Position numbers and translations under genes: made by a program
The notes under the pieces: generated by a model
Seen by the model: only the letters and a program-made list of their open reading frames with translations
Told to the model about the DNA's origin: nothing
The model's database searches: none
DNA from: an uncultured bacterium
GTDB taxonomy: Bacteria > Auribacterota > JAFGBW01
Assembly: GCA_964443875.1 (NCBI GenBank)
Contig: CAYUET010000001.1
Coordinates: 134,992-198,991 of the forward strand
DNA length: 64,000 bases
Direction of reading: 5' to 3'
In this document: piece by piece, positions 1 through 59,667 of the stretch
How the letters are laid out: the number at the start of each line of letters is the position of its first letter
How positions within the stretch are numbered: position 1 is the first letter of the stretch

Positions 1-16
1 GAAATACGGTAAGAAT

Positions 17-1996
17 TTGGCTGAAATGGAAGAGCTGAAAACACTTGAAGTGCAATTTTCCAAAACATCCAGTGACCTTGAAGAGACCAAATCCAAACTC
101 TCAATTCTTGAACTGGAAATCCGCACGGCAAGGGAGATCGAAGAAAAAAGAAAACAGAAAGTTGAAGAACTCATTTTAAAGGGAAAAGATGCTCTCGACG
201 GCAAGCGCTTGGAGGAAGCTCTGGATCATTATCTTCATGTCCTGGAAGAGGATCATAAAAATCCGCGAGCCATTCATTATGTTCAGGAAATTAAAACACT
301 GTTAAAAGAACAGGACGCTGAGACAAAGCGAAGAGAGGAAGATGCCCGGAAGATTGCCCAGGAAGCACGCAAGTGTTTTGAAATGGGGAAAAAATACTAC
401 CGGGAGAATAATTTTGAAAAAGCACTGGAAAGCGTCAACACCGCTCTTTCCATCGGTGGAAAAAATTCAGAATTTCTGGATTATAAGGAAAAATGTGAAT
501 TAAGAATTCATGAGATTGAGGAAAATCTCAATCGGGCCAAAAGAGAAATTGAGGAGAAAAAACGTCTTGTTTCTGAATACCAGCTCACGGCGAATACTCA
601 TTTCCGAAAAAAGGAATACGATTCCGGCATACTGCTTCTCGAAAAAGCCCTTTATCTGATCCCGGATAATAAAGAAGTTCAGGAATCCCTCAGACAGGCT
701 GAAAATAAATACAAGGAATTTCTGCAGGTTCAGGAAAAAGACGTCCAGCTGAAAAAACAGAAGCAGGAACAGCTGCGAGAGCTTGAAGTCAAGGCTCTGG
801 AGATGGTCCGGAATGAGGATTATGAGAATGCGATTAAATGCATAGAGCAGGGATTGAAAATATGTCCGGAAAGGGATGACTTCGCATTGTTTTTAAAAGA
901 ACTTAATGAGAAATATCTTACTCACAAAAAATTCTGCGAGGAAAAAGAAGAGAAACAGAATAAGGCAAAACAGGAACGGCAGAATCTTTTAAAGGAATAT
1001 TATGCAAAGGCTCTTCAGGCGTTCATGGTTTGTGACCTCGATCTTGCAGCCAATTATTTCGGAAATGTCATGGTTCTGGATCCTCATTATGAACAGGTTG
1101 AGACTTACCTTCAGAAAATTTCTGATTTGAAAAAAAATATTGAAGCGGAGAAAAAAGAAGCCGAGTTAAAAGCTTTTGAAAAACAGGAGGCCCTTGAAAA
1201 AATCAGAGAGGAAGAAAAAAACAGGAAGAATCAGGAGCTGGTAGAGCTTTTTTCTTCCGCTCTTAAATTAGCAAGTGAAGAAAATTATGAAGGCGCCTTA
1301 ACCCGCTTTGAAAAATGTTATGCCCTTGATCCCTTCAATGAAACCTTCAGGAAAGAAGTTGAAAACACCCGGAAATTCCTCAATGAAAAACGTGTCAGGG
1401 AAAGGCTGGAAAAAGCCAGAGAGGAGGAAAGACGGGAGGAGGAGAAATCCAGGCAGCTTAAAATTCAATTTCATCTGGAGCAGGCGGAAAGCTATTTGAA
1501 TAACAATCACGCCTTGAAGGCAAAAGAGGAATGGGATAAAATTCTTTCTTTGGATTCCTGTAATCAAAAAGCCAGGGACGGCCTGCTTAAATGTGAAAAT
1601 TTTCTCCTTGCAGAAGAACAGAAATGCCTCAGAGAGGAGCAGCTCAAAAAAGAAATCGTCTCCAGAATTGAAAAGATAAACTTTGAAGCCAAATTGCTTC
1701 TTAAAGAGGATAAGTTTTATGAAGCCATTAATCTTTATGAATCAGCCCTGAACCTGGATTCCGGAAATAATGATGCTAAAAACGGAATCCTGGAATGTAA
1801 ACAGTTTCTGTTAAACAAAAACACCTGCGATGAATTAAAAAGCAATGTGGAAAGACTTTTACAGGCTCAGGTCAACCGTCTTGATGAATTGAAACAGACT
1901 ATTTCTGAGGGAGCAAAATTTTATCAGGAAAAGGATTATTCAAAAGCTTTGGGAATCTGGAACAGTATTACTCATCAGCTAAAAAAACAGGATTAA
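17..1996 (+). CDS. Lys/Glu-rich coiled-coil TPR-repeat protein. The reading frame is open back to the window edge, so the true start may lie upstream.
   Basis: 659-aa ORF. Recurring A-x-x-Y-x-x-A-L-x-L-D-P TPR-like motifs (ALDHYLHVLEED, NAIKCIEQGLKICPE, ALTRFEKCYALDPF) alternate with long K/E-rich coiled-coil stretches. No stop codon between position 2 and 17 in this frame. The stop lies 4 nt before the next start. Confidence 0.6.
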   Translation: MAEMEELKTLEVQFSKTSSDLEETKSKLSILELEIRTAREIEEKRKQKVEELILKGKDALDGKRLEEALDHYLHVLEEDHKNPRAIHYVQEIKTLLKEQDAETKRREEDARKIAQEARKCFEMGKKYYRENNFEKALESVNTALSIGGKNSEFLDYKEKCELRIHEIEENLNRAKREIEEKKRLVSEYQLTANTHFRKKEYDSGILLLEKALYLIPDNKEVQESLRQAENKYKEFLQVQEKDVQLKKQKQEQLRELEVKALEMVRNEDYENAIKCIEQGLKICPERDDFALFLKELNEKYLTHKKFCEEKEEKQNKAKQERQNLLKEYYAKALQAFMVCDLDLAANYFGNVMVLDPHYEQVETYLQKISDLKKNIEAEKKEAELKAFEKQEALEKIREEEKNRKNQELVELFSSALKLASEENYEGALTRFEKCYALDPFNETFRKEVENTRKFLNEKRVRERLEKAREEERREEEKSRQLKIQFHLEQAESYLNNNHALKAKEEWDKILSLDSCNQKARDGLLKCENFLLAEEQKCLREEQLKKEIVSRIEKINFEAKLLLKEDKFYEAINLYESALNLDSGNNDAKNGILECKQFLLNKNTCDELKSNVERLLQAQVNRLDELKQTISEGAKFYQEKDYSKALGIWNSITHQLKKQD

Positions 1997-2000
1997 TTCC

Positions 2001-4163
2001 ATGCCAGAGGGCGAAAGCAATAAAAATCAAAAGGGCGGGGAAAGCAGGAATCTGGATTCTCTTAAAAATGTCAATCTGGATGCCATTTCTTCCTCTTTAA
2101 ATGAAGCCTCTGCAGAAATAAATGAAAAGCAGAAAGAACTTGACGGACTTGAGGAGCAGAAAAAAAAGGTTCTTGAAAAGCTGAATCAGAAAATTTCCCT
2201 AATCAAAAAGCAGACCGATGATGCTTTTCAGAAAATGAAAAATTTTTCCTGGGACGAGGCTCTCTTATGCTGGAATAAAGTTCTTGAAATTGATCCTGAA
2301 AATGAAGAGGCAAAGAAAGGATTGACCGAGTGTCAGGCTCAAAAAGAAGCCGCCCCGAAAACACCTGTTGCCGCAACCTCTTCTCCCGGAACCTTGAACC
2401 AGGAGGATCTGGATAAGCTTCTTTCGGAAGGCCGGGCGGCTTCCGGAATCGGCGGGGTTATGAGCCAGGAGGAGCTGGATAAATTACTTTTTTCCGGAGG
2501 ATTAACCCCTTCTTCAGAGCCTGCAAAAGAGGCCCCTGTTTCTCCGTCTGAAGAAAAGCCTTCTGAGACTTTAAGCCAGGAAGAACTGGATAAACTGATT
2601 TTCGGAGACAATCCTCCTCCTAAAACTGATAGTGGAAAACTTACTGTGGATAAGGGAAAGGAGCCTTCTTCTTTGACTCCGGAAGCTCATGCGGATAAAC
2701 CTATGTCGCAGGATGAACTGGATGCCATGCTGAACAATTTTTCCAAAGAAGGCATTCCTGAGATTTATTCACAATCGGGGAAGGAAACGAAAAACGAAGG
2801 TAGTAAAAAAGAACCTCAGGAACCTGAGATGCTTTCTCAAAACCAGATTGATGCCCTTCTGGGGATTGCAACACCCGCAAGCGAACCTTCTGCTGATTTA
2901 AGTGGCGAGATGATGACTCAGGAGGAACTGGATAAATTTTTAAATCCTTCTCCGGCCGCTGTTCCGGCCAAGGAAACAGTTTCACCGCAGACAAAAGAGC
3001 CTCCCTCTGAACCTCCTAAGGCAGAACAATCGACACCAGCAGAGGTCTGGAAGCTAAATACAAACGATGCGGATCTCTTTCAGTTAGGCTCGGCATTAAG
3101 TTCTCTGGCGTATATCGTGCCGATTAAAAATATCGTTGAGGATCCTTTATCCGAGCTTCATCCGCCTGAAAACATTCATTATGCGGAAGTGATGGATGAC
3201 TCAAAAAATATCGATGAAGTATTTAAGGAAATGGCTACAAGCACCGGTCTTGATTTGAACGAGGTTTCTAAAATGGGGGATACCATTGCCGCAAATGTGT
3301 CTCAGGAAATGAAATCCATTCCCTTAGAAATGACTACGGAAGGGGCTGAATCTCCGGTTTCTGAAAGTGTTGCTCTTGCCGCCAGAAAAACAAAGCCCGG
3401 CTTGACTGAAATACTGTCCGATGTCAAGATGGTGAAGGATTCCGGGGGTTCTCTGAAATTTTTCTATGTCTTAAAATGGCTTGTTGTTGTTTTAGGATTC
3501 GGTTTTGTCTGCACGCTGACTTCCACATTGATTTTATATTCAAGATTAACGGATTCTGTCCGGGGAAAACCAGTGATAAAAACAGAGGTATCTTCCGATG
3601 CAATAATAGAAGCTATCCTGACAGAAGGTAATAAATATTTAGAGGAAGGGGAGTATCAAAAGGCCTGGGATATTCTTTTTTCCATCTCTGATCAGTACCC
3701 CTCAACGTCTAGTATGATTAATAATTTTTATAAAGCTGCAGATTTGTTTAATGATAAATGTAAAAATAGAGAAGATCTGGTTCAGGAGGATTATCTTAAA
3801 ATTTCCCGTTTGTATGAACAGATTGTCGATCAGTTTCAGGGTAGTAATAAAACAGAAAGAGCAAGTTACCTTGCGGCTGAAAATTATTATATGGCAGGTA
3901 TTTATCATAAATCTTATGAAATGTATTTTAGAATTGTATCTAGAAATCCTGAATCGGATTATTATCAGTCTGCTTTGCTGCAATGTGCAAAAATATTACT
4001 CATTGAGAATAAATTTAAAGAAGCCAGAGATGCTTATCTTAAGGTGGTTCAGGAGTTTCCAGATACAGCTGCCGCAAGGATGTCCCAGCTGGATATCGCC
4101 AAAACCTATCAGCTTGAAGCCTTGAATATTAAAAATCAGTTTCATTTTTCAGAAAAACGCTAA
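2001..4163 (+). CDS. Membrane-anchored protein with six tandem FliM/FliY-type CheY-P docking-like motifs, one TM helix and a C-terminal TPR-like domain
   Basis: Motif copies: aa 132-141 LNQEDLDKLL, 154-163 MSQEELDKLL, 191-200 LSQEELDKLI, 235-244 MSQDELDAML, 278-287 LSQNQIDALL, 305-314 MTQEELDKFL. They are separated by P/S/E/K-rich low-complexity linkers. A hydrophobic helix lies at about aa 488-513 (FFYVLKWLVVVLGFGFVCTLTSTLILY). The C-terminal ~200 aa are TPR-like (YQKAWDILFSISDQYP, YLAAENYYMAGIYHKSYEMYFRIVSRNPES, ARDAYLKVVQEFPD). Confidence 0.7.
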   Translation: MPEGESNKNQKGGESRNLDSLKNVNLDAISSSLNEASAEINEKQKELDGLEEQKKKVLEKLNQKISLIKKQTDDAFQKMKNFSWDEALLCWNKVLEIDPENEEAKKGLTECQAQKEAAPKTPVAATSSPGTLNQEDLDKLLSEGRAASGIGGVMSQEELDKLLFSGGLTPSSEPAKEAPVSPSEEKPSETLSQEELDKLIFGDNPPPKTDSGKLTVDKGKEPSSLTPEAHADKPMSQDELDAMLNNFSKEGIPEIYSQSGKETKNEGSKKEPQEPEMLSQNQIDALLGIATPASEPSADLSGEMMTQEELDKFLNPSPAAVPAKETVSPQTKEPPSEPPKAEQSTPAEVWKLNTNDADLFQLGSALSSLAYIVPIKNIVEDPLSELHPPENIHYAEVMDDSKNIDEVFKEMATSTGLDLNEVSKMGDTIAANVSQEMKSIPLEMTTEGAESPVSESVALAARKTKPGLTEILSDVKMVKDSGGSLKFFYVLKWLVVVLGFGFVCTLTSTLILYSRLTDSVRGKPVIKTEVSSDAIIEAILTEGNKYLEEGEYQKAWDILFSISDQYPSTSSMINNFYKAADLFNDKCKNREDLVQEDYLKISRLYEQIVDQFQGSNKTERASYLAAENYYMAGIYHKSYEMYFRIVSRNPESDYYQSALLQCAKILLIENKFKEARDAYLKVVQEFPDTAAARMSQLDIAKTYQLEALNIKNQFHFSEKR
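2394..2942 (+). repeat. In-frame array of six ~30-nt coding repeats (consensus CAGGAGGAACTGGATAAACTGCTT, encoding SQEELDKLL) spaced 60-130 nt apart
   Basis: Direct reading of the nucleotide and protein sequence. Copies begin at about 2394, 2460, 2571, 2703, 2832 and 2913. Confidence 0.85.
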
Positions 4164-4177
4164 CATTTCATTCGAAT

Positions 4178-4193
4178 TGGAATAAGATTTGCA
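4178..4193 (+). promoter_or_regulatory. Candidate sigma-54 (-24/-12) promoter TGGAATAAGATTTGCA, 49 nt upstream of the TPR lipoprotein start
   Basis: Matches the GG-N10-GC spacing of the TGGCACG-N4-TTGCA consensus: T1 G2 G3 A5 T12 T13 G14 C15 A16 conserved. A sigma-54 activator is encoded 4.4 kb downstream. Confidence 0.45.
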
Positions 4194-4241
4194 TAATTAA
4201 TTTGTTGTTTAAAAATACAACAATTTACTTCAACGGAAAAA

Positions 4242-6815
4242 ATGAAAATAGTTCGTCTTACAATTATCACTCTTTTATGTTTTATGTTTTCCTGCGGAAG
4301 TCTTTTTTCTTTTCAAATTTTTAAACCTAAAGCTAAAAATGCCAATGAACAGAAACAGCCCAAGAAAAAACTTTTTGGAGACTCCAAAAAGGTTAAATAC
4401 AAAAATATTCTGAAAGAAGCGGAAAAAGCCTATAATAACCAGGAATATGAGACGGCGCTAACTCTTTATCGCAAAGTATTGGTGATAAAACCTAAAAATG
4501 AACTGGCTATCCAAAGAATCAATGAGATCAATAAATGGACGGCATTGCTTGATAAAAAATTAAAGGCCAAGGATAAAAAATATAAATCAAGAATTAAAAA
4601 AATTAAATCCATTTCGTCAAAAAAAACAGTGGAAGCCAAAAAACTCGGTCAGCAGAAAATAAAATTGGAACAGAATATTGCCCTTGAAAAAAAGAAGCAA
4701 AAGCACTGGATGTCGGCTGCAACTTATTCCAATATGCTTTATGAGGCGGCTCTGTCACTTTCTCAGAAGGATTTCAAAAAAGCCCATTCTCTTACCACTA
4801 AAATCCTTATGGCAAGGCCCGATTCCATTGAAGCCAGGGATCTTTTGCATCGCATTTCAAATGCCGAGGATGAGTGGTATGAAATTCAAAAATTAAAGAC
4901 TGCTTTGGAGGATACCCAGAAAAAGTTAATCGAAGAAGCAAAAAAAAAGGCTGAAGAGAAAGCGATAGAAAAAAAAGAAGAGGAAAGGAAAAAACAAATA
5001 AAAGAGTCATCTCCTGAAAAAAAAGGGGAGACTCCTCCTGTTCTCGATAGCGAGGATATGATTGCTAAAAAAATCAAATCAGCCCTTGATGAAATTGTCG
5101 GCGGACGTTTTACTGCAGCCGATTTTATCACGGATACCCATAAACTTAAAGAAGTTGAGATGGATTTTTTAAATGAACAGTCTGTGGTCATTTACCAGAA
5201 GTCCGTCCAGGAATACGAAAAGGATGAAAAGGCGGGGAATTTGCTGAATTATAACATCAGGGATCTTAAAAATTACAAAAAAAGAATTTCTGAAGCGTAT
5301 TATTGGATAGGGAAATATTACGCAGGAAAAAACAAGACAAAAGAGGCGATTCAAAATTTTAAAATCCTTCAGGAAAAATTCAAGGATTCTGATTATCTTC
5401 ACTCTTCTTTGTATGCACTTGGGATTATTTATTTAAACAGCAATGAGTTAAAAACAGCGTTGAAATATTTTGAGGGAGTTGTGGATATCCCCAAGATCCT
5501 GGATAACACTGAAAGCTTGTCACAGGCTCAGGTTCTGCAGGAGGAGCATGAAAAAACAGTTCTGAATTCCTATCAGAAAATCGGACAGATTTATCACAGG
5601 CTTAAAAATTATGCTCTGGCCGTTGAAACCTACAGAAGTATTTCCGACAAATATCCTGAAAATGCATCGCTTCAGCTGGAAGGCGAAATTCTTACCGGCG
5701 AAACTTATTTGGATCAGGCCTTATATGAAAAGGCCCTGGAATTATATACGGAGGTTCTGGATAAGGCGACAGATCCCCGGCAGATTGAAAGGGCTCAATA
5801 CAACAGGGCGGCGGCTTTTCTCGGGCTTTCAAAATTTGAGCTGGCAAGAACGGATCTTCAAAGTATTATTACAGAAAACCCTCTCAACACCCTTCAATCC
5901 GATGCCGCCTATCTTCTGGCGGAAAGTTTTTTTATTCAGAACAATTTTCCAAAAGCCATTATTTTTTTCAACAAAGCACTGAATGAATACCCGGATTCCG
6001 ATAAAAAATTCCGTGCAAAAATTCTTCTCGCCAAATCCTATTCAAAATCAACGCTTTTTGAAAAAGCCATACCTTTGTTTGAAGACATTATTGACCGCCG
6101 GATCAAGGAATGGACTCCGGATGCCTTTTGCGAACTGGGTGAGATTTATCTTCAACAGCTGAAATATTCCGACTCCAGAAATGCCTTTTCCGAGCTGATT
6201 ACTTCTTTCCCTGACCATGTGCTGACGAAAAAAGCCAGGTTTCTGGTGGGGGATACTTTTTTTTCCGAGAAAAAATATTCTCCGGCTGAAAAACAGTACA
6301 GAACAGCGTTAAGGTCGGATTCGCTGACTCTGGAGGGGCATATCGCAAAATACAGAATTTCCTTTTGTCTGAAAGAATTAAAGAAAGACGAGCTTTATGA
6401 AAAATATACCGGAGATCTTTTAACTCTTGATGATTATTCCAGAAAAATCTGGGACCAGGATAAGAATCCCCAGAGGGCGGAGTTTAAAAAATATTATTAT
6501 AAGCTTCTGTTTGATTATGGCTGCTGGACTATGGAAAAGAAAAAATACAACAAGGCTGAAAAAATACTTAAAAGGGTGGTTTCGGAATTTTCAGAAGGTG
6601 AGGATTCCCACCAGGCGGATTATCTTATCGGAAAAATATACGAACTTAAAAACTTGAAACAGAAAGCACTGGAACATTACGGGACTGTTTCCAGCTATCA
6701 GGACTTCTGGGGCGAGCAGGCAGGATTTCAATTAAAAAAACTGGAATGGGAAAAAAAATATCAGAACCAGGCTGAAGAATTGAAAGGAATGACCTCTGAA
6801 TCCAAATCAAATTAA
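4242..6815 (+). CDS. Large TPR-repeat lipoprotein or secreted protein with a Lys-rich coiled-coil N-terminal region
   Basis: 857 aa. N-terminus MKIVRLTIITLLCFMFSCGS looks like a signal peptide with a lipobox-like F-S-C. Numerous TPR-like repeats run through the C-terminal 600 aa (YEKALELYTEVL, AAYLLAESFFIQNNFPKAIIFFNKALNEYPDS, AFCELGEIYLQQLKYSDSRNAFSELITSFPD). Confidence 0.65.
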   Translation: MKIVRLTIITLLCFMFSCGSLFSFQIFKPKAKNANEQKQPKKKLFGDSKKVKYKNILKEAEKAYNNQEYETALTLYRKVLVIKPKNELAIQRINEINKWTALLDKKLKAKDKKYKSRIKKIKSISSKKTVEAKKLGQQKIKLEQNIALEKKKQKHWMSAATYSNMLYEAALSLSQKDFKKAHSLTTKILMARPDSIEARDLLHRISNAEDEWYEIQKLKTALEDTQKKLIEEAKKKAEEKAIEKKEEERKKQIKESSPEKKGETPPVLDSEDMIAKKIKSALDEIVGGRFTAADFITDTHKLKEVEMDFLNEQSVVIYQKSVQEYEKDEKAGNLLNYNIRDLKNYKKRISEAYYWIGKYYAGKNKTKEAIQNFKILQEKFKDSDYLHSSLYALGIIYLNSNELKTALKYFEGVVDIPKILDNTESLSQAQVLQEEHEKTVLNSYQKIGQIYHRLKNYALAVETYRSISDKYPENASLQLEGEILTGETYLDQALYEKALELYTEVLDKATDPRQIERAQYNRAAAFLGLSKFELARTDLQSIITENPLNTLQSDAAYLLAESFFIQNNFPKAIIFFNKALNEYPDSDKKFRAKILLAKSYSKSTLFEKAIPLFEDIIDRRIKEWTPDAFCELGEIYLQQLKYSDSRNAFSELITSFPDHVLTKKARFLVGDTFFSEKKYSPAEKQYRTALRSDSLTLEGHIAKYRISFCLKELKKDELYEKYTGDLLTLDDYSRKIWDQDKNPQRAEFKKYYYKLLFDYGCWTMEKKKYNKAEKILKRVVSEFSEGEDSHQADYLIGKIYELKNLKQKALEHYGTVSSYQDFWGEQAGFQLKKLEWEKKYQNQAEELKGMTSESKSN

Positions 6816-6822
6816 AGATCTT

Positions 6823-7221
6823 ATGGAGGGGCTTCATAAGGAAATTGAAATGTATTCAGAAATACGTTCTTTTTCCCTGAAGGAAAATACGCTTCTGAAG
6901 AAATCCGCACCGCTCAAAACAGTATACAGTTTTATTCCTTATAAAGTAAAAATACTGGAAGATATTCAGCACACGGAAGAAAGGATCGCTTCGTTGAAAA
7001 CCCTGTGGATGGAATGCCGGGAACAGAAAATTCCTCTTCCCGGGGAATTGAATGTTCTGCTGAAAACAATTGAAAAGATACTCGGGGAAACCATAGAGCT
7101 CGATGAGCAGAATAAAAATTTAATGAGCCGGTATATCCGTGGACTCGGGCATTTCAATACAGCCTCGGATCCTGAATTGAATTACAGCAGGGCGGTAAAT
7201 GCGTATAAAGGGAAGTATTGA
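6823..7221 (+). CDS. Hypothetical 132-aa protein located between the TPR lipoprotein and the flagellar two-component system
   Basis: ORF with no recognisable motifs. Its size and position would fit a small flagellar chaperone or regulator, but there is no sequence support for that. Confidence 0.35.
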   Translation: MEGLHKEIEMYSEIRSFSLKENTLLKKSAPLKTVYSFIPYKVKILEDIQHTEERIASLKTLWMECREQKIPLPGELNVLLKTIEKILGETIELDEQNKNLMSRYIRGLGHFNTASDPELNYSRAVNAYKGKY

Positions 7222-7248
7222 TTATTTATGAAGGGAAGTCTATAATTC

Positions 7249-8598
7249 ATGCATACCCCCGAGGTTCAAAATTCAGGAAAGAAACGCTTCATGAAAAAAT
7301 TTTTTGAAACACCGGAACAGAATTTAAATCAAACGATACAGAAAGCATTTGAAGAGTTTAATGAAAAAAGTCAGAAACTGACCAATGCCTATAATGATCT
7401 GAAAAAAGAAGTGGCCAGGGTTAATCTCGAGCTGGAAAATAAAAACAGGGAACTCGAAAATAAAAACAGGGAACTGGACCGGGCAAAAGTTTTTCTCGAC
7501 AGTGTGTTTCAGGGCATGATCAACGGCATTATGGTTTTGGATAAAGAGGCGAAAATCATCAAGGTCAATGAGTCGCTTTTAAAACTGATCAAAAAAGAAG
7601 AAACGGATCTTCTGTGCAGAAATATTCATGAAATTAATGAATTAAAACCTTTTTTGCGATTTTTTGAATCTTCCAAACATTCGGATTCTAAAACCATCTA
7701 CAGCGCATGCCGTTTGACCATTGAAAACGAGGTTTTATGGCTGGAACTTTCAGGATCCGGTGTCGGAGAGGATTTTATTCTTGTGGTTCATAATTTGACC
7801 GAAGTCAGGGATTTAAGAAAACAGCTTGTCCAGAATGCTTCCATGGCAGGTCTGGGCGAAATGGCGGTTACCGTTGCACATGAAATCCGCAACCCGCTGG
7901 GGGGGATTGAAGGTTTTGCCTCTCTTTTGAAAAGGGATCTGGCCGATAATCCCAAACATCTTCAGCTTCTTGAGAAAATCATCAGCGGGGTCAGGCATCT
8001 GAACCAGTTTATCGGCGGATTATTGACATTTTCAAAGCCTATTCCCATTCATCCCCGTGCTGTTGATCTGAATTTGGCAATCCACAAAGCGATTCATTAT
8101 TCAGGAAAAAATGAAGAATTGGATAAATATCCACAGGTTTCAATCCTCACCCAGACAGACGAAGAAATTCATCTTTCAACAGACCCGGATCTCATTCAGC
8201 AGTTACTGATTAATCTTTTACTCAATGCTTTTCAGATTATGAACAATGAAGGTACTGTAAAAATTTTTCTTAAATCCGTAGAGCATCTTGGGGATTATAA
8301 AGATACTACCGCATTAAAAACCATAAAAAGTCTTAATTATGATCCTCTCAAAAAGGGGATTTTAATTTCTGTATCCGACTCAGGTCCGGGAATAACGCCG
8401 GAAATAGGTAAAAAATTATTTTCGCCTTTTTTTACGACAAAAGCGTTTGGAACAGGGATAGGTCTTTCAATGGTTCATAAAATTGTTGATACCCTTGAAG
8501 GAAAAATTGATACTTATTCAAAAAGTGAATTAGGAGGAGCGGAATTCAGAATTCTGCTGCCGGAGCTTGCGATGATTGAACCTCAAAAACAGGATTAG
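7249..8598 (+). CDS. Soluble PAS-domain sensor histidine kinase, FlgS/FlrB/FleS-like by context
   Basis: No TM segments. PAS-like segment (LDSVFQGMINGIMVLDKEAKIIKVNESL). H-box HEIRNPLGGIEGFASLL. HATPase_c G-boxes (DSGPGITPEIGKKLFSPFFTTK, GTGIGLSMVHKIV). Sits immediately upstream of the sigma-54 response regulator and the flagellar rod genes. Confidence 0.8.
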   Translation: MHTPEVQNSGKKRFMKKFFETPEQNLNQTIQKAFEEFNEKSQKLTNAYNDLKKEVARVNLELENKNRELENKNRELDRAKVFLDSVFQGMINGIMVLDKEAKIIKVNESLLKLIKKEETDLLCRNIHEINELKPFLRFFESSKHSDSKTIYSACRLTIENEVLWLELSGSGVGEDFILVVHNLTEVRDLRKQLVQNASMAGLGEMAVTVAHEIRNPLGGIEGFASLLKRDLADNPKHLQLLEKIISGVRHLNQFIGGLLTFSKPIPIHPRAVDLNLAIHKAIHYSGKNEELDKYPQVSILTQTDEEIHLSTDPDLIQQLLINLLLNAFQIMNNEGTVKIFLKSVEHLGDYKDTTALKTIKSLNYDPLKKGILISVSDSGPGITPEIGKKLFSPFFTTKAFGTGIGLSMVHKIVDTLEGKIDTYSKSELGGAEFRILLPELAMIEPQKQD

Positions 8599-8601
8599 AA
8601 A

Positions 8602-9963
8602 ATGACTATTAGAAAAGTACTGGTTGTGGATGATGAACCTCTGATGAGGGATTTTGTCGGTGAAACCCTTCTTCGAATGGGTTGTGAAGTCAAGTTTGCC
8701 TCGGAGGGACTTGCGGCGATAAGATTGCTTGAAAATGAAAATTTTGATCTTGTTTTCAGTGATATGAAGCTTCCGAAATTATCCGGGCTTGAAGTGCTGA
8801 AAAGCACAAAAGAATTAAGCCCAAAAACAGAAGTTGTCATTATGACAGCATATGGAACCATTGAAACAGCCATAGACGCCATGAAATCCGGCGCATCGGA
8901 TTATCTTTTAAAGCCTTTTACACCTGAACAGGTGGAGCTAGTAGTGGATAAAATTTCATCCAGCGTTTCTCTGAAGGCGGAAAATGAGTATCTTCGCCGG
9001 GAAGTGAATGAAAATTACGGTTTTGGAGAAATCATAGGTCAGTCAGAGCCTCTTCAGGATATTTACAACCTAATCAAAAAAGTTGCAGAGTCCAAAGCCA
9101 GTGTTTTGATAAGCGGAGAGACCGGGACAGGTAAGGAGCTTATTGCAAGGGCCATTCATTACAACAGCGACAGAAAAAATAAACCTTTTATCAAGTTTAA
9201 TTGCGCAGCTTTACCTGAAAATCTTATTGAAAGCGAGCTTTTCGGACATGAAAAGGGCGCTTTTACAGGCGCAAATATCTTAAGGCAGGGAAGGTTTGAG
9301 CTTGCTGACGGAGGAACCATTTTTTTGGATGAAATATCTGAAATTGATATTTCTCTTCAGCCGAAATTGTTAAGGGTACTTCAGGAAAGGGAGTTTGAAC
9401 GGGTCGGATCAGCCAGAAGCATAAAGGTGGATGTAAGAATTTTAGCCAGCACAAACCGCGATTTAAAGGCGGAAATTGAAAAAGGAACTTTCAGGGAAGA
9501 TCTGTATTATCGTCTGAATGTTGTTCCTGTTCATCTGCCTCCCCTGAGGGAAAGAAAAGGGGATGTCCTTCTTTTGTCTGAAAAGTTTTTAAAACGTTTT
9601 TCCCAGGAAAACAAAAAACAGGCAAAATCCTTTACGAAAGAGGCTCTGGATCTTTTAGAAAAATATCCCTGGCCCGGGAATGTTCGCGAGTTGGAAAATG
9701 TTATTGAAAGAGCTGTTGTTATGGATCGAAGCAATGTTATTGAACCTAAGGATTTGGGGATATCTCTTGAAGCTTCGGATTCTTTTATGCATCAGGCTAA
9801 AACAGATAAGCCTACCGGACAGACTTTGGCTGAGATGGAAAAAGATCTTATCGTAAGCACTCTGGATCACTACCAGGGGAACAGGACAAAAACAGCGGAT
9901 GTGTTAGGCATAAGTATCCGGACTTTAAGGAATAAACTACATGAATACCATCTCATGTCCTAG
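8602..9963 (+). CDS. NtrC-family sigma-54-dependent response regulator (REC + AAA+ + Fis-type HTH), FlgR/FlrC/FleR-like flagellar activator by context
   Basis: REC domain (VLVVDDEPLMRDF...D54-like FSDMKLP). AAA+ Walker A GETGTGKE. The GAFTGA sigma-54 contact loop is present (EKGAFTGA). C-terminal HTH (TADVLGISIRTLRNKL). Confidence 0.85.
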   Translation: MTIRKVLVVDDEPLMRDFVGETLLRMGCEVKFASEGLAAIRLLENENFDLVFSDMKLPKLSGLEVLKSTKELSPKTEVVIMTAYGTIETAIDAMKSGASDYLLKPFTPEQVELVVDKISSSVSLKAENEYLRREVNENYGFGEIIGQSEPLQDIYNLIKKVAESKASVLISGETGTGKELIARAIHYNSDRKNKPFIKFNCAALPENLIESELFGHEKGAFTGANILRQGRFELADGGTIFLDEISEIDISLQPKLLRVLQEREFERVGSARSIKVDVRILASTNRDLKAEIEKGTFREDLYYRLNVVPVHLPPLRERKGDVLLLSEKFLKRFSQENKKQAKSFTKEALDLLEKYPWPGNVRELENVIERAVVMDRSNVIEPKDLGISLEASDSFMHQAKTDKPTGQTLAEMEKDLIVSTLDHYQGNRTKTADVLGISIRTLRNKLHEYHLMS

Positions 9964-10090: not shown

Positions 10091-10106
10091 TGGTATGTTA
10101 TTTGCA
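10091..10106 (+). promoter_or_regulatory. Sigma-54 (-24/-12) promoter TGGTATGTTATTTGCA upstream of flgB
   Basis: 10 of 12 defined consensus positions match TGGCACG-N4-TTGCA, with exact GG-N10-GC spacing. It lies 29 nt upstream of the GTG start of flgB, which is preceded by an AAAAGGAAAAG Shine-Dalgarno. Confidence 0.6.
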
Positions 10107-15953: not shown

Positions 15954-16396
15954 AAAAATTCAAATTCAAACTCAAGGCGGTTTTAAGGGAGCGGGAAATC
16001 CGTGAAGATGAGAAAAAAAGGGATTTCGGTGTTGCCATGGGAAAACTTCAGAAGGAAAAAGATATTTTGTCCGGATATCAGCAAAATAAGGAAGACTCTT
16101 TTGATTTTTTAAAACTTCACAAACAACAGGAGTTTCCGAATATCGGAACACTCCGTTTATATGAAACGTATCTGCTTCATCTGAATAAAAAAATCAATCT
16201 TCAATGTGCAACCATTCTGCAGGCCGCCTCCAATGTATCTGCAGCCCGACAGAGACTGCTCGAAGCGACCCGGAGGAAAAAGATACTTGAAACTCTGAAG
16301 GATCATCAGAAACAAAGATATTATCTGGAAGCTGAGAAACAGGATTTAAAAGAAATGGATGAATATAATGTTTTAAAGGCGGTACATCATGAATAA
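15950..16396 (+). CDS. fliJ: Flagellar export protein FliJ
   Basis: 148 aa coiled-coil. N-terminus KFKFKLKAVLREREIREDEKKRDFGVA resembles FliJ family starts. Follows fliI with a 4-nt overlap. Confidence 0.65.
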   Translation: MKKFKFKLKAVLREREIREDEKKRDFGVAMGKLQKEKDILSGYQQNKEDSFDFLKLHKQQEFPNIGTLRLYETYLLHLNKKINLQCATILQAASNVSAARQRLLEATRRKKILETLKDHQKQRYYLEAEKQDLKEMDEYNVLKAVHHE

Positions 16397-17018
16397 TATC
16401 CTTAAACTTCTGGGAATTGCTGCTGCTGTTGTTATAATTATTCTTCTTATTGTTATCTTTACTGTACCTTCGTTAAAAAAGACTGTATTCGGTTCACCGG
16501 AAGAAGAAGCCCTGAAAACTAAAGAAGAGACTGCTGTAAAAGCTTCAATTCCAGTTATTAAAGATACTTATATTCCCAATAAGGAAGTTTTAGAGCTGGC
16601 TGAAACGCTAAAACAAAGGGAAGTTAAATTAAAAGAAAATGAAGAGCGTGTTCAGCGTCAGATGGTTTTAATGGAAAAAGAAAAACAGGAACTTGTCAAA
16701 ATAAGAAATGAAATACAGACTTTGCATCAGACCATTGCAGCCAATATCACTAAAAACGTTGAGTATTACATTCCTTTGATAAAAGAGGCTGAAAAGAAAA
16801 ATCTTAAGAAAATGGCTAAAATGTTTGAAACACTTTCTCCTGAAAACGCCAATCCCATTATGGCTCGTATGCCGGATCAGACCCTGGTGATTGTCCTGTC
16901 TTTTATGAAACCCCGAAATTCAGCGAAATTGCTGGCAGGGTACGCGGCCTACAACGCGGATAGTCCCAGAAGGGCGGCTGAACTTACTGAAAAACTCAGA
17001 AATCTGGTCATCCAATAA
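16389..17018 (+). CDS. MotE/YlxF-like flagellar protein (N-terminal TM, coiled coil, MgtE_N-like C-terminal domain)
   Basis: 209 aa. TM LLGIAAAVVIIILLIVIF. C-terminal block (MAKMFETLSPENANPIMARMPDQTLVIVLSFMKPRNSAKLLAGY) resembles the MgtE_N fold found in MotE/YlxF proteins that follow fliJ in Bacillus-type fla operons. Confidence 0.45.
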   Translation: MNNILKLLGIAAAVVIIILLIVIFTVPSLKKTVFGSPEEEALKTKEETAVKASIPVIKDTYIPNKEVLELAETLKQREVKLKENEERVQRQMVLMEKEKQELVKIRNEIQTLHQTIAANITKNVEYYIPLIKEAEKKNLKKMAKMFETLSPENANPIMARMPDQTLVIVLSFMKPRNSAKLLAGYAAYNADSPRRAAELTEKLRNLVIQ

Positions 17019-21474: not shown

Positions 21475-22113
21475 ATGAGCAGCACTTCCATTTTTAAAAA
21501 AATTCTGTTTGCAGATGATGATGATGCATTCCGTTTTACCATTAAAGAATATTTTGCTGATTCTCCATGGACGATTGATATGGCTGAAAACGGAGTTGTT
21601 GCTCTGGATAAGGCTCTGGCCTGTCATTATGACCTGATTATTCTGGATATCAATATGCCTTTTATGAAAGGCAATGAAACAGTAAAAGAAATCAAAAAAA
21701 AATGGCCTAAAGTAAGAGTTTTAGCTTTTACTGCCTATGCTTCTCATGATGTGATCGATCAGTATCTGAAAGATGGTTTTGATGATGTTATTTCCAAACA
21801 TACAGATCTTGATTTATTTCAAAAAATAATATCCCAGCATTTGAGGATGGACTCCCCTGCCCAGGAATCAGCCGCTGCTGTTAAAAAAGAAACAGATTTA
21901 GCTTTTGAATCGATTTCTGAAGAACCTAAACAACAAGTTCTAAGTTCTGAAATATCTGATTTTTCAATAATTAATGACGGACAACAGAATCCTTCAGATT
22001 TTTTAATTAAAAGGATTCAGGAACTTGAACAGGAAAAGAATGCTTTGATGGAAGAAAATCTTCAATTAAAACAAAGAATAGCGATGCTTCAAAAATTGAT
22101 TAAACCCGTCTGA
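21475..22113 (+). CDS. Single-domain response regulator (REC) with a C-terminal coiled-coil/leucine-zipper extension and no recognisable output domain
   Basis: 212 aa. ILFADDDDAFRF...LIILDINMPFMKGNETVKEIKKKWPKVRVLAFTAY is a CheY-like receiver. The C-terminal 60 aa form a heptad coiled coil (IQELEQEKNALMEENLQLKQRIAMLQKLI). Confidence 0.75.
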   Translation: MSSTSIFKKILFADDDDAFRFTIKEYFADSPWTIDMAENGVVALDKALACHYDLIILDINMPFMKGNETVKEIKKKWPKVRVLAFTAYASHDVIDQYLKDGFDDVISKHTDLDLFQKIISQHLRMDSPAQESAAAVKKETDLAFESISEEPKQQVLSSEISDFSIINDGQQNPSDFLIKRIQELEQEKNALMEENLQLKQRIAMLQKLIKPV

Positions 22114-23187: not shown

Positions 23188-24171
23188 ATGAATACTTCAA
23201 CTATTATTTTTATTTCGATAGGCGTTTTGTTTATTCTGTTTTTATTTTTCCTTTATTTTAAAAGAATTGCAAAAAGAAAAAAAGTGGAAATGGGATTGGC
23301 AGAAGGCCCTGCAACACAGATGGAGTTGGAAAACGACCCTGAACTGCGGCAGACTTATATCGATTTCAAAGAGCTTATGTTCAGCACTCTTTCTCTTAAA
23401 TATGAGAATATTAAGGTTATTGCTTCCGGCGGAATGGGCATTATTGTTACCGCTATTGATAAAAAAGATAAAAAAAAGGTAGCCATAAAAACCATATCCC
23501 CCAAGTTGCATAAGCATCCCAAGGCCATTAAATTCTTTTTCCAGGAATGTCAGGCTATTCAAAAAATGAATCACCCCAATATTGTAAGAATCTATGATTC
23601 TGCAGATGAAGGTTTTTTATACTATGTCATGGAGTTCCTTGAGGGGGAAACCCTGGAAGAAAAAATTAATCGAGAAGGAGTCCTCCCGGTTTCTCAGATC
23701 GTCAGAATCGGCACCCAGGTTGCACGAGCGTTACAACATTGCCATTCAAATGGAATTGTGCACAGGGATATAAAACCTTCCAATATTTTTATTACCAAAA
23801 ACGATATCTGTAAAATTATTGATTTTGGAGTGGTTAAAATGCTTGACGCTGAGACGCATGAAACCGGCGCTATCGGGTCTCCCCATTATGCGGCCCCTGA
23901 ACAGCTTCAGGCAGGAAAAATTTCGGGAAAGAGCGATGTCTATTCACTGGGCGTGTGTCTTTATAAAATGGCTTCAGGCCAATATCCCTATTCTGTAAAC
24001 GATCTAGTAACGAAAGTCTTTGAGAAGCCTAAAAATCTGAAGGATATTTGCCCTTCAGTATCTGATGAACTGATTGAAATCATCAATGAATGTATTGCCA
24101 TTGATCCTTCGCAACGATGCGAGGCAACAAAATTATGGGCAAAACTCAAAAAAATCAATATCGGTGAATAA
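23188..24171 (+). CDS. Membrane-anchored eukaryotic-like Ser/Thr protein kinase
   Basis: 327 aa. N-terminal TM (IIFISIGVLFILFLFFLYF). Kinase subdomains: VAIK lysine, HRDIKPSNIF catalytic loop, DFG, GSPHYAAPE. Confidence 0.8.
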   Translation: MNTSTIIFISIGVLFILFLFFLYFKRIAKRKKVEMGLAEGPATQMELENDPELRQTYIDFKELMFSTLSLKYENIKVIASGGMGIIVTAIDKKDKKKVAIKTISPKLHKHPKAIKFFFQECQAIQKMNHPNIVRIYDSADEGFLYYVMEFLEGETLEEKINREGVLPVSQIVRIGTQVARALQHCHSNGIVHRDIKPSNIFITKNDICKIIDFGVVKMLDAETHETGAIGSPHYAAPEQLQAGKISGKSDVYSLGVCLYKMASGQYPYSVNDLVTKVFEKPKNLKDICPSVSDELIEIINECIAIDPSQRCEATKLWAKLKKINIGE

Positions 24172-27566: not shown

Positions 27567-29804
27567 TTAATCCATTTGTGTAATCATAAAATTAACACGG
27601 TCGGAATGTCCTGCCTTATCGGATACAGCCAGGGTATGCGCGCCTTTTTTCAGGGATAAGCTGCAGAAAGGTTTTGAAGTCCGGGCAATGAGCTGCCCGT
27701 CAAGAAACCAGAATAATTCCTCAAAGGAATAATCCGCCTCAACGTTACATTCCATATTTTTGGGCATAAGCGGATCCTTCGAGACAGGAAGAAGGTATTC
27801 AGATCCATTAACAGGAAAACGAATATTTAATTTTGGTTTTATGGAAGCCTCTGTTTTATTCAGCAGGAAGCTTCTGATATTTTCAGGGAACACTGTTTCA
27901 ACGCGTTGAGTTTCCGGGTTTAATCTGTGGACCGTACAAACGGCTTCAGAACTGATTCCCCTGATTCTTTCATCCTTGATGAATTCCCCGCAGTAATGCC
28001 CTGCGGGAGCGCCTGAAAGCGCACATACTTTCTGTGAAAAAACAGAGTCAGGTTTTTCCCAGTGCCCAATATTTCTGTTTAAGGAAACGAGTTGTTGTAT
28101 TTCCAGGGCAAGAGGTAAAGCAATTTCAGCTCCCAGAAGAATATTCTGGCCTTCACCTGAAAGATGCCCGCACCATACGCCCAAGATATAGTCCGGGGTA
28201 AGAACCATTGCCCAGGCATCACGGTGATTCCAGCTGGTGCCTGTTTTATAGCCAGGTTTAAATTCCTCTCCGGGTTCTGAAATCCCCAGGGATCTAAGAG
28301 TAAGATAGGAAGACCCTTCCGGATAGATTCTTACTCCTTTATTTTTAGGCTCATCGGCCAGCACCTTTAAAGCTTTCCATAGTCCCTTTCTGGGAAAAAC
28401 AGCATAGGCGTTGGCAAGATCTGTCAGTTTCATTTCCTCAGTGCCAAGCGCAAGGGAGAGTCCCAGACGCTTATCTGCGGAAATAACATTCAATCCCATA
28501 TCGTGAAGATCTTTTGAGAACTCACTTACCCCGATCTTTTTCAGAAGGGTTACTGCCGGAATATTCCTGGATTTGGAAAGGGCATCTTTTGCTGAAACAA
28601 TTCCGAGAAAGGAACGGTCGGAGTTGGAAGGATGATATCCATTCCATGTCATGGGAATATCATAGAGAAGGGATGCCGGAGTTAAAAAACCCTGTGAAAA
28701 GGACCGGGCGTAAATAAAGGGTTTTAAAAGCGAACCGGGCTGACGCTTAGACAGCGCCGCATTGACATAGCCAGTCAGGGGATGGGCTGGATTAAGGGAT
28801 CCGATCAGGGCGGCAATAGAACTGTCCTCAACACGCAGGATTACAGCCGCATATCCGTCAATGCCTTTTTTATTAAACATCAGGCGTTTTTCCTTAACAT
28901 GTTCAATCAGCAGATGCTGAAGGTCATAATCTAAAGTAGTTTTATAAATCCCCCCCTTGTGGCCGGTAATCTGTTTTATCCATTCTGAAAAATGAATGGA
29001 AAAATGGGATTCAGAAAAAAAAGAAGAATTTTTACGGACTAAATTTATTTTTTGAACGATAGCCTGCTGATATTCTTCAGGAGATATGAAGGAATCCTCC
29101 AGCATTCTTTTAAGAACATAATCCCTTCTTTTTAACGCCCTGGGTAATTGCCTGTAAGGATAATAACGTGTAGGAGCCTGGGGAAGACCGGCCAGCAAAG
29201 AAGCTTCATTAAGATTTAAGTCTGAAGCCGTTTTATTGAAATACTTTTGGGCTGCGGCTTCAATACCGCAGATATTTCCACCATAAGGGGCAATATTAAA
29301 ATAAATTTCAAGAATCTTATTTTTGGAATACAGGCCTTCGAGCTGAAGGGCGCGGAATATTTCAATCAGCTTGTTATAATAATTTCTCTCCCTGGGCCAC
29401 AGCATACGGATCACCTGCATGGTGAGTGTTGAAGCGCCTGAAAAACGTCTGCCTTTGGTGATGTTCTGACCTGCAGCACGGAACAGAGAGAAAAAATCCA
29501 CTCCCGGATGCTCCCAGAATCGTTTATCCTCAGCAGCAAGAGTTGCCTGAACAACAGATTCAGAAATCCGGTTCAGGGAAGTCTTTATCTTCCATGTGCC
29601 GTTTTCACTGACATACCAGGCCAGAAGATTTTTTCCTGTCTTGTCTTTAACACAGGTACTCTGAAGAGAAAACTGCTCTTCCAGATACTGAAGCGGAAAT
29701 GGAAAAAGACAGGACAGGAAAAACAGAAGCAGAACAAGAAAAATAGAACACAAAAATATTCCCAGAAAAATTTTAAAAATTAATTTCAGGAAACCCACAT
29801 TCAT
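27567..29804 (-). CDS. pbpC: Penicillin-binding protein 1C (transglycosylase / PbpC-type)
   Basis: 745 aa. GT51 motifs EDKRFWEHPGVD and GASTLTMQ. N-terminal TM. Overlaps by 4 nt with the upstream alpha-2-macroglobulin gene, the conserved yfhM-pbpC arrangement. Confidence 0.85.
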   Translation of the reverse strand: MNVGFLKLIFKIFLGIFLCSIFLVLLLFFLSCLFPFPLQYLEEQFSLQSTCVKDKTGKNLLAWYVSENGTWKIKTSLNRISESVVQATLAAEDKRFWEHPGVDFFSLFRAAGQNITKGRRFSGASTLTMQVIRMLWPRERNYYNKLIEIFRALQLEGLYSKNKILEIYFNIAPYGGNICGIEAAAQKYFNKTASDLNLNEASLLAGLPQAPTRYYPYRQLPRALKRRDYVLKRMLEDSFISPEEYQQAIVQKINLVRKNSSFFSESHFSIHFSEWIKQITGHKGGIYKTTLDYDLQHLLIEHVKEKRLMFNKKGIDGYAAVILRVEDSSIAALIGSLNPAHPLTGYVNAALSKRQPGSLLKPFIYARSFSQGFLTPASLLYDIPMTWNGYHPSNSDRSFLGIVSAKDALSKSRNIPAVTLLKKIGVSEFSKDLHDMGLNVISADKRLGLSLALGTEEMKLTDLANAYAVFPRKGLWKALKVLADEPKNKGVRIYPEGSSYLTLRSLGISEPGEEFKPGYKTGTSWNHRDAWAMVLTPDYILGVWCGHLSGEGQNILLGAEIALPLALEIQQLVSLNRNIGHWEKPDSVFSQKVCALSGAPAGHYCGEFIKDERIRGISSEAVCTVHRLNPETQRVETVFPENIRSFLLNKTEASIKPKLNIRFPVNGSEYLLPVSKDPLMPKNMECNVEADYSFEELFWFLDGQLIARTSKPFCSLSLKKGAHTLAVSDKAGHSDRVNFMITQMD

Positions 29805-41078: not shown

Positions 41079-41546
41079 ATGCCTGAAACAAAATGCGCTG
41101 TTTTAAAAATCGTCATGGGGGATGCTACCGGAAAAAAAGAATTTCCCATCATTACAGAACTGATGATAGGCAGGGATGCTAAAAATGATATAGTCATCCC
41201 TAACCCTAATGTTTCACGAAAACATGCGAAAGTTTTTAAAGATGAAGCAGGTCTATGCTGGCTTGAAGATCTCGGAAGCCATAACGGCACCCTTTTAAAC
41301 GGGCGTCTGGCACGCAAGGAAAAATTACAGGAAAATGATATCATCCTTATTGCGGATACAGAGCTTACCTTTTTCGGCAATGCCGAGATTCCTGTTGCGA
41401 CTAATAATAAAAAAGTCACGGAAGAGGATTTAGGGGTAATCGGCTGCAACAGCACTGCTTTTATTGACCTTTCTGAATTAAAAAAAGAAACCATGGAAGA
41501 TTTGCGAAAAAAGAAGCCGAGTATTACAGATCATTGGAAAGAGTAA
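41079..41546 (+). CDS. FHA-domain protein
   Basis: 155 aa. FHA core GR-x(n)-VSRKHA...G-SHNGT-LNG (LMIGRDAKNDIVIPNPNVSRKHAKVF...LEDLGSHNGTLLNGRL). Confidence 0.75.
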   Translation: MPETKCAVLKIVMGDATGKKEFPIITELMIGRDAKNDIVIPNPNVSRKHAKVFKDEAGLCWLEDLGSHNGTLLNGRLARKEKLQENDIILIADTELTFFGNAEIPVATNNKKVTEEDLGVIGCNSTAFIDLSELKKETMEDLRKKKPSITDHWKE

Positions 41547-59052: not shown

Positions 59053-59667
59053 ATGAAAATTAAAGGATTTACTCTCATCGAAGTTCTTGTCGTTATTTCA
59101 ATTCTTGTCATACTTATTTCTCTTTTTCTGAAAAACCTTTCCGGAATTCAGACGAATGCCCTGAAAACTGTCTGCGCAAAGAATATAAAAGTTCTTACTC
59201 AAAACTTATGTCTTTATACTTCCCAATACGAAGGCTATTTAAAAAACTGCACACAGACAACACCAGCTTCTGATATCTACGGATATCTTTTCAGAAGAGA
59301 CGGATGGAATGATCTTAAAAATCTGATTTGTCCCTGTGCTGAAAATCAAACACTCCCAACCACCCCGAATGGATATGGATCCCCCCTGAAATTACCTGAA
59401 GGAGTCACCCTTTCAGATTACTGGATTGTTTTTTCCGGAAATGCTGATCCAAAATTCATAAACACTTTTACCGTCCCTGCCACCAATACCCTTATCATTG
59501 AAAAATTCAATACCGTAACGAACACATGGGATTCAACCTGTAATCATAAAACCGGCGGGAATATCGGACGGCTGAACGGAAGTGCTGAATACGCAACCGT
59601 AATTCCTTTCAATAAAAGCTTAACCGGAACAAAGGTTGAAATTAAAGGTGAAAACTGTGCAAAATAA
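59053..59667 (+). CDS. Prepilin-type N-terminal cleavage/methylation domain protein (type IV pilin or pseudopilin-like)
   Basis: 204 aa. N-terminus MKIKGFTLIEVLVVISILVILISLFL is the class-III signal peptide (G|FTLIE) plus hydrophobic helix. Confidence 0.7.
   Translation: MKIKGFTLIEVLVVISILVILISLFLKNLSGIQTNALKTVCAKNIKVLTQNLCLYTSQYEGYLKNCTQTTPASDIYGYLFRRDGWNDLKNLICPCAENQTLPTTPNGYGSPLKLPEGVTLSDYWIVFSGNADPKFINTFTVPATNTLIIEKFNTVTNTWDSTCNHKTGGNIGRLNGSAEYATVIPFNKSLTGTKVEIKGENCAK

Follow-up and report, generated by a model that had tools for sequence, protein, structure and literature searches.

Phosphorylated CheY (CheY-P) acts on FliM and FliY through a single N-terminal peptide, and its removal proceeds via a similar peptide of CheZ. 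The LSQxEIDALL (EIDAL) motif is a CheY-P binding site and is both necessary and sufficient for the binding of FlhG (PMC6700473; PMC6946799; bioRxiv 10.1101/2022.04.21.489128), and the N-terminus of FliM (FliM-N) stays disordered until CheY-P is bound (PMC6700473). HubP recruits FlhG, FlhF and chemotaxis proteins (PMC12918733; bioRxiv 10.1101/2022.04.21.489128). PflA combines an N-terminal beta-sandwich and a linker that wraps PflB with 16 tetratricopeptide repeats (TPRs), and the periplasmic part of PflB begins at residue 113, with a TPR domain spanning residues 113–820 (PMC12222027). In this study, we analyzed a 64,000-nucleotide stretch (hereafter the window) of an uncultured bacterium of the Auribacterota (JAFGBW01; assembly GCA_964443875.1, contig CAYUET010000001.1, positions 134,992 to 198,991 of the forward strand), at the start of which the open reading frame (ORF) listing places three consecutive large genes, g1, g2 and g3, on the + strand. 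A preliminary description had regarded them as a three-gene TPR/coiled-coil module upstream of the flagellar regulon, possibly a PflA/PflB-like stator scaffold or, alternatively, a chemotaxis-related polar scaffold. Judging from the sequence, the cytoplasmic repeat region of g2 is a putative array of six docking motifs of the FliM-N (EIDAL-like) type, and the locus could encode an envelope-spanning, lineage-specific scaffold, co-regulated with the flagellum, that tethers CheY-like or FlhG proteins, an interpretation that we hold to be a serious possibility, if somewhat short of probable.

The three genes are arranged as follows:

2..1996, + strand: g1, cytoplasmic coiled-coil/TPR protein (ORF listed as 17..1996; frame open back to base 2)
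2001..4163, + strand: g2, 720 aa, bitopic membrane protein
4242..6815, + strand: g3, 857 aa, exported TPR protein

The window edge truncates the 5' end of g1, of which approximately 40 codons are missing relative to the full-length, 701-aa ortholog in the related locus L006 (7891..9996), where a further coiled-coil/TPR gene, g0, precedes it. The g2 gene starts 4 nt past the end of g1. Its product has no signal peptide and a single strong hydrophobic segment, and because the 484 residues in front of this segment are hydrophilic, the N-terminus is presumably cytoplasmic; the layout of cytoplasmic repeat region, transmembrane (TM) helix and TPR domain that had been proposed for gene 2 is thereby upheld as a predicted topology. 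Its elements, supported by the AlphaFold2 (AF2) model and by profile matches, are:

2052..2351, + strand: aa 18–117, long helix plus one TPR unit of the g0/g1 type (AF2 helices 18–79, 84–97 and 102–117; NF042912)
2394..2423, + strand: EIDAL-like motif 1, LNQEDLDKLL (predicted helix 134–142)
2460..2489, + strand: EIDAL-like motif 2, MSQEELDKLL (predicted helix 156–164)
2571..2600, + strand: EIDAL-like motif 3, LSQEELDKLI (predicted helix 193–201)
2703..2732, + strand: EIDAL-like motif 4, MSQDELDAML (predicted helix 237–249; kept in the ortholog P0032)
2832..2861, + strand: EIDAL-like motif 5, LSQNQIDALL, the nearest to FliM LSQAEIDALL (predicted helix 280–286; kept in P0032)
2913..2942, + strand: EIDAL-like motif 6, MTQEELDKFL (predicted helix 307–314; kept in P0032)
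3060..3311, + strand: aa 354–437, membrane-near cytoplasmic segment without a family match, conserved across all four orthologs
3453..3548, + strand: aa 485–516, TM helix (hydropathy maximum; AF2 helix 485–516)
3594..4139, + strand: aa 532–713, predicted periplasmic TPR domain, YbgF/CpoB- and BamD-like (profile matches)

The six copies of the pattern [LM][SNT]Q-x-[ED]-[LI]-D-x-[LMF]-[LI] in the tail of g2 (at aa 132, 154, 191, 235, 278 and 305) are the sole matches to it in the 39,568 aa of six-frame ORFs of the window. In the orthologs P0028 and P0029, which are ~70% identical to g2, the motifs are retained while the linkers between them diverge, and the more distant P0032 (40% identity) keeps exactly motifs 4–6. 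When a profile of the motifs was compared with 177,635 distinct PDB sequences, the top match (E 0.12) was to residues 6–19 of FliM (LSQAEIDALLNGDS), the stretch of its N-terminus that binds CheY-P and FlhG. Among 18,950 NCBIfam models, the repeat region obtained four matches with E ≤ 10, including the N-terminus of FliY (0.096), CheZ (0.15) and the N-terminus of FliM (0.22). We identify the motifs as EIDAL-like because these individually weak matches to FliM, FliY and CheZ agree with each other and with the matches of more distant relatives to FliY models (see below).

The likeness to the N-terminus of FliM/FliY extends from the [LM]SQxE[LI]DxLL pattern to its setting, a disordered chain with a predicted short helix. 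In the C-ring proteins FliM and FliY, however, there is one copy, right at the N-terminus, whereas the six copies of g2 are internal and belong to a membrane-anchored protein without CheC/SpoA domains. The C-terminal CheY-binding peptide of CheZ, with its weak NCBIfam match, is also akin to the g2 motifs. In the AF2 model of g2, residues 118–531 are predicted to be disordered (predicted local distance difference test, pLDDT, < 50) apart from short helices, which coincide with the six motifs and a few other places, and the disordered cytoplasmic tail has a net charge of -34 and a pI of 4.4. The conserved segment at aa 354–437, located after the motif array and before the TM helix, matches only g2 orthologs among 1.84 billion representatives.

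An exhaustive HMMER search of the same 1.84 billion representatives with a longer g2 segment spanning the repeat region recovered six proteins, two of them orthologs and the remaining four other multi-motif proteins, with E-values of 5e-15 for P0031, 3e-11 for P0030 and 1e-3 for P0034. (A word-indexed search with the 211-aa repeat region returned no match, g2 itself included, and was discarded as uninformative, probably as a consequence of low-complexity handling.) P0031, a protein of 1000 aa with many SQDDIDALL-type motifs, matches the FliY N-terminal model with an E-value of 2.3e-9 and FliM with 0.011, and P0034 matches the FliY N-terminal model with 3e-4; since the tail of g2 matches both proteins, its motifs are linked transitively to FliY/FliM. 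P0030 and P0031 have a common globular N-terminal domain and no TM segment, and they are encoded in two unrelated contigs, each flanked by a PseD/Maf-like flagellin-modification gene (NF050051, E 2e-27) on one side and the gene of a regulator with a receiver (REC) and an HD_5 domain on the other:

L007 7944..13423 and L010 7932..13936: loci of P0030 (14 motifs) and P0031 (many more motifs of the same type)

P0033 (220 aa, ~5 EIDAL-like motifs) is encoded 30 nt 3' of a methyl-accepting chemotaxis protein (MCP) gene (L013 2..1275). That such proteins recur beside genes of receiver domains, chemotaxis or the flagellum is consistent with a role in docking receivers. More speculatively, and with clear doubts on our side, g2, P0030, P0031, P0033 and P0034 might constitute an unrecognised class of multivalent docking proteins, in which 3 to ~30 FliM-N-type motifs on disordered chains would capture phosphorylated CheY-like receivers or FlhG, the g2 array being mounted on an envelope-spanning lattice as a platform separate from the C-ring. 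A literature search, whose coverage was incomplete and which is therefore no proof of novelty, yielded no description of multi-EIDAL proteins. If this class were real, many-peptide CheY-P docking proteins would add a layer of motility control, whether as a localised sink, as a reservoir or as a platform for recruiting CheY-like or FlhG proteins, and would bear on the spatial shaping of signals and on flagellar number and placement in little-studied phyla.

Several observations weigh against a docking role of g2 at the flagellum. The direct matches to FliM, FliY and CheZ are individually non-significant (E 0.1–0.2), the motif is short, with amphipathic helices of the LDxLL type being common, and the g2 copies usually have K for the A of FliM and L for its I. 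The AF2 model of g2 is of low confidence (pLDDT 44, from a three-sequence alignment). No cheY, fliM or flhG is present within the window, hence there is no FliM motif of the same lineage for comparison, and P0034 has no motility genes adjacent to it. In the distant relative L009, neither g3 nor flagellar genes follow g1-g2, an arrangement that weakens any obligatory link of this pair to the flgB locus. Finally, TPR proteins are common in the genome, with two further TPR genes in the window alone (59674..61080 and 62764..63684).

As a separate observation, a 212-aa protein in which an acidic linker joins a REC domain to a C-terminal coiled coil is encoded at 21475..22113, a position that is kept in the related locus L003, and it is a possible candidate for a CheY-like partner.

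The related loci also show what surrounds g2 on its 5' side. In L006 (1942..9996), the gene order upstream is LysM lipoprotein, 429-aa REC protein, STAS protein, g0, g1 and g2, followed by g3. The LysM lipoprotein has an LLGGC lipobox and a weak LipL71-like match, the C-terminal 300 aa of the REC protein match no assigned domain, the STAS protein measures 123 aa, and g0 is a 1135-aa coiled-coil/TPR protein that is paralog-like to g1; the combination of REC and STAS proteins in this operon suggests a partner-switching element. L006 and L003 come from the same sample, and L003 runs on into flgB. The g1 ortholog of L006 (701 aa) is 84% identical and without signal peptide, and that of L009, a locus from a black bog soil dataset of a magnetic-enrichment study, is 48% identical; in both loci it lies directly 5' of the g2 ortholog, the pairing being kept at identities as low as 48% for g1 and 40% for g2. 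Gene 1 is, as had been suggested, a coiled-coil TPR protein, E/K/L-rich and with isolated TPR units: ~8–9 of them are recognisable, in each of which a long K/E-rich helix comes after a single, isolated pair of TPR helices. The same repeated combination makes up g0, and neither protein has a signal peptide. Since one region of the NCBIfam model NF042912 matches g0, g1 and g2 alike, and the first 117 residues of g2 are by this comparison one unit of the g0/g1 type, the shared unit suggests that the three proteins may co-assemble.

Taken as a scaffold, the system might work as follows. The sigma-54 promoters described below would express it together with the flagellum. In the cytoplasm, g0 and g1 would form a coiled-coil/TPR lattice, to which g2 would be joined through its N-terminal unit as a single-pass adaptor of the inner membrane, and in the periplasm its YbgF-like TPR domain would serve as an anchor, probably together with the g3 lipoprotein and the wall-contacting LysM lipoprotein. 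By analogy with FliM, the six EIDAL-like helices could bind phosphorylated CheY-like receivers and/or the MinD-like ATPase FlhG, and the array would thereby tether these regulators of motility, concentrate them or buffer them at one fixed place in the envelope, plausibly the flagellar pole or the surroundings of the motor. The outcome may be likened to a landmark of the HubP/FimV type or to a CheY-P sink. Of the two earlier proposals, the chemotaxis-related scaffold thus fits better than PflA/PflB on account of the six EIDAL-like motifs, and the polar location that it included is plausible only.

That the g1-g3 scaffold resembles HubP/FimV-type landmarks more than stator scaffolds is likewise an analogy that we advance with reservations, as possible and not yet probable. 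g2 shares with HubP/FimV a single TM segment, a periplasmic anchor domain, a long, acidic, repeat-bearing cytoplasmic region and a cytoplasmic TPR element (PMC12918733). Its orientation, however, is reversed, with the N-terminus predicted in the cytoplasm and the cytoplasmic TPR unit N-terminal, and its periplasmic domain consists of TPRs instead of LysM, which in L006 is found on a separate lipoprotein. The repeats of HubP are acidic, whereas those of g2 are EIDAL-like motifs. No FimV C-terminal domain and no FimV-family match was detected in g2 with Pfam and NCBIfam, and g2 is not a member of the HubP/FimV family.

Two sigma-54-type promoters were recognised near the start of the window:

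4178..4193, + strand: sigma-54-type promoter TGGAAT-N5-TTGCA (TGGAATAAGATTTGCA), 49 nt before the g3 ATG
10091..10106, + strand: sigma-54-type promoter TGGTAT-N5-TTGCA (TGGTATGTTATTTGCA), 29 nt before flgB

These are the only two matches to TGG-N8-TTGCW in the window, both on the + strand and in short intergenic DNA, and as a count they are not above chance (2 observed vs 5.4 expected). The sigma-54 promoter that had been noticed in front of g3 is nevertheless confirmed by its conservation in relatives and its resemblance to that of flgB. It is kept in L006 and L008, where the proteins are ~70–80% identical and the intergenic DNA is otherwise rearranged, with 130 nt inserted directly in front of the site in one of these two loci; the flgB promoter is kept in L001, L003, L004 and L005. 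A third site of this type (TGGTATTCTTTTTGCA) lies in L006, 39 nt before the LysM gene that heads the operon. A single operon of g1, g2 and g3 was considered and rejected, as a conserved promoter lies between g2 and g3, and no g3 follows the pair in L009. The supposed three-gene module therefore dissolves: g1-g2 close a longer operon that begins further upstream, and g3 is the first gene of a separate unit. Apparently there are two transcription units, a six-gene operon ending with g1-g2 and another one comprising g3, a 132-aa gene, a kinase gene and a regulator gene, both predicted to be sigma-54 dependent like flgB. A scan of the g2-g3 interval for terminators gave no convincing candidate, and read-through from the upstream operon is possible. 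The genes that follow g3 are:

6823..7221, + strand: 132-aa gene of the g3 operon, faintly FlgN-like, separating g3 from the kinase gene
7249..8598, + strand: PAS-HisKA-HATPase histidine kinase, soluble, with a FlgS/FlrB-like role (Pfam, NCBIfam; without TM segment)
8602..9963, + strand: NtrC-family sigma-54 activator response regulator, REC-AAA+-HTH_8 (Pfam, NCBIfam)

The order of genes 3' of the regulator is flgB, flgC, fliE, fliF, fliG, fliH, fliI and fliJ. The pair has the composition of a FlgS/FlgR-type system, a soluble kinase and a sigma-54 activator adjoining flagellar genes with sigma-54-type promoters. Against the Campylobacter FlgR model, the regulator scores 365 bits (cut-off 750), and it is classified by its profile as an NtrC-family member, not as an equivalog of Campylobacter FlgR. 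The three large genes are indeed situated upstream of the two-component pair and flgB, not "immediately" so, as the 132-aa gene intervenes; its match to Pfam FlgN (E 0.022) is under the cut-off and its position is kept in L001, L002 and L003. This position, together with a conserved sigma-54 promoter like that of flgB, supports the link to the flagellar regulon that the preliminary description had drawn. In addition, of the sigma-70-like promoter matches in the first 10.6 kb, the best one (7218..7246, TTGATT-17-TATAAT, 10/12) falls in the 27-nt gap before the kinase gene and could provide basal expression of the two-component system independently of sigma-54.

The product of g3 is an 857-aa TPR protein with a signal peptide and lipoprotein-like features, in line with what had been read from the sequence, and it is the best conserved of the three (78–80% identity):

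4242..4295, + strand: g3 signal peptide with lipobox-like FSC (Cys18)

The [FL]SCG cysteine is conserved in the g3 orthologs, and g3 is probably a lipoprotein. Its AF2 model (pLDDT 74.6) is all alpha-helical and starts with a signal helix and a disordered linker; one TPR unit accompanied by long helices comes next, and a confidently predicted TPR superhelix of ~13 repeats (aa ~340–850) follows. In Pfam and NCBIfam, only TPR-class families are matched by g1-g3, and the periplasmic parts of g2 and g3 are nearest to YbgF/CpoB and BamD. The TPR domain of g2, which is its best conserved stretch among the orthologs, matches TIGR02795 (E 7e-15, 55.6 bits vs a cut-off of 90.1) and TIGR03302 (E 2e-5), both under their cut-offs, as well as the PDB structure of YbgF, 2xev (E 0.0015); g3 scores 135.6 bits against TIGR02795, a value that is reached by summing five repeat stretches. 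Searches of the PDB sequences, run with the individual proteins as well as with a profile of orthologs, returned only designed or consensus TPRs, APC and IFT subunits and weak matches to YbgF/CpoB (2xev and 6g5s among the PDB entries), and Foldseek of the g3 model against the PDB returned generic TPR superhelices only (Ctr9, OGT, APC, Ski3). No match to PflA or PflB was obtained from Pfam, NCBIfam, PDB sequences or Foldseek-PDB, libraries in which the presence of these two proteins was not confirmed.

The strongest of the competing explanations is a periplasmic stator or motor scaffold, like PflA/PflB or the TPR proteins of the spirochete collar, in which the TPRs of g3 and g2 would ring the motor and position MotAB while the cytoplasmic parts would be accessory; we consider it unlikely. 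It gains from the fact that g3, with its conserved, flgB-like promoter, heads the operon of the flagellar kinase/regulator pair, and from the resemblance to PflA/PflB in having an exported superhelix of ~13 repeats alongside a TM-anchored protein with periplasmic TPRs in the company of sigma-54-controlled flagellar genes. The TPRs of g2 and g3 are moreover nearest to YbgF, and the YbgF protein of the Tol-Pal system has been proposed as a possible origin of PflA/PflB (PMC12222027). Yet an exported long TPR superhelix, as seen in g3, is generic to many unrelated proteins, the folds found here are generic TPR folds, and no similarity to a flagellar scaffold appeared in Pfam, NCBIfam or the PDB. 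The AF2 model of g3 contains no strands, and thus neither the N-terminal beta-sandwich of PflA nor, in the g3 architecture, its linker is present. PflB has a short N-terminus, a TM segment and a periplasmic part of ~700 aa, whereas g2 has 484 aa before the TM helix and ~200 after it, so that ~480 of its 720 residues are predicted to be cytoplasmic. The cytoplasmic partners g0 and g1 have no counterpart in the Pfl system, and in L009 the g1-g2 pair occurs without g3 and without flagellar neighbours. A PflA/PflB-like stator scaffold is therefore not borne out for the locus: the combination of a TM-anchored TPR protein with an exported one is present, and the resemblance is limited to this topology and to TPR content. 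Restricted to g3, a motor-scaffold role would be compatible with the docking scaffold that we favour. More generally, a gene pair encoding a TM-plus-TPR protein and an exported TPR protein near flagellar genes need not be PflA/PflB.

The spirochete collar (FlbB, FlcA, FlcB) also holds exported, motor-associated TPR proteins (PMC8609358), and no match of g1-g3 to collar models was seen; matches to spirochete-type models in general (FlbB, LipL71, Leptospira kinase families) were far under their cut-offs. The gene that follows fliJ (16389..17018, 209 aa) has an N-terminal hydrophobic segment, a weak MgtE_N match and a weak match to FlbB (NF047368, E 8e-6, 25.7 bits vs a cut-off of 110), which counts in favour of a collar-like arrangement; its product may be a motor accessory protein of the FlbB/YlxF type.

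Still less likely, in our estimation, is that the g2 motifs serve another partner, either the TPR units of g0/g1 or some helix-binding domain, and drive the formation of a multivalent lattice or condensate under the membrane. TPR domains typically bind short acidic peptides, and four TPR-bearing proteins are encoded alongside the motif array; the N-terminus of g2 is itself of the g0/g1 unit type, and the direct match to FliM is marginal. What counts against such partners is that P0030, P0031 and P0033 have no TPR proteins nearby and are found beside REC, MCP or flagellin-modification genes, that P0031 and P0034 match curated FliY N-terminal models, and that the TPR units of g0/g1 are isolated pairs, not the arrays of at least three repeats that are usual for peptide grooves.

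That the genes encode ordinary TPR proteins of envelope maintenance (CpoB/YbgF-like or BamD-like), adjacent to flagellar genes by chance in a TPR-rich genome, is improbable in spite of YbgF, BamD and CpoB being the top curated matches for the g2/g3 TPRs, the frequency of TPR genes in the window and the L009 pair without flagellar neighbours, given the conserved and flgB-like promoter of g3, its place in one operon with the two-component system of the flagellum, the EIDAL-like array, the absence of tol-pal or bam genes adjoining g1-g3, and an architecture of g3 (~13 repeats and an N-terminal coiled region) that is unlike that of CpoB and passes the YbgF cut-off by its five-repeat sum.

Scans of 185,579 species-representative genomes gave no relative of g3 and, with the g2 alignment, one irrelevant match to an archaeal coiled-coil protein. 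Metagenomes yielded no relative either, whether scanned with the C-terminus of g2 or with the alignment of g1, and a homolog search with g3 returned g3 itself and generic TPR proteins only. Other proteins of the window (TypA, TrpA, Asd) have merely 1–5 members per 90% cluster. The lineage is very sparsely sampled, g1-g3 are lineage-specific, and the family is very rare.

Elsewhere in the window, the gene of a bacterial alpha-2-macroglobulin (1797 aa) adjoins that of a PBP1C-type transglycosylase/transpeptidase on the - strand (27567..35194), the two being a classic periplasmic defence pair. Two genes for eukaryote-type Ser/Thr kinases are present (23188..24171 and 41534..44089), of which one is a fusion with a CHASE2 sensor domain. 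Genes for a platform protein F of the type II secretion system/type IV pilus kind (T2SS/T4P) and for a pseudopilin-like protein (N_methyl) (54317..55549 and 59053..59667) are found near the two additional TPR genes mentioned above.

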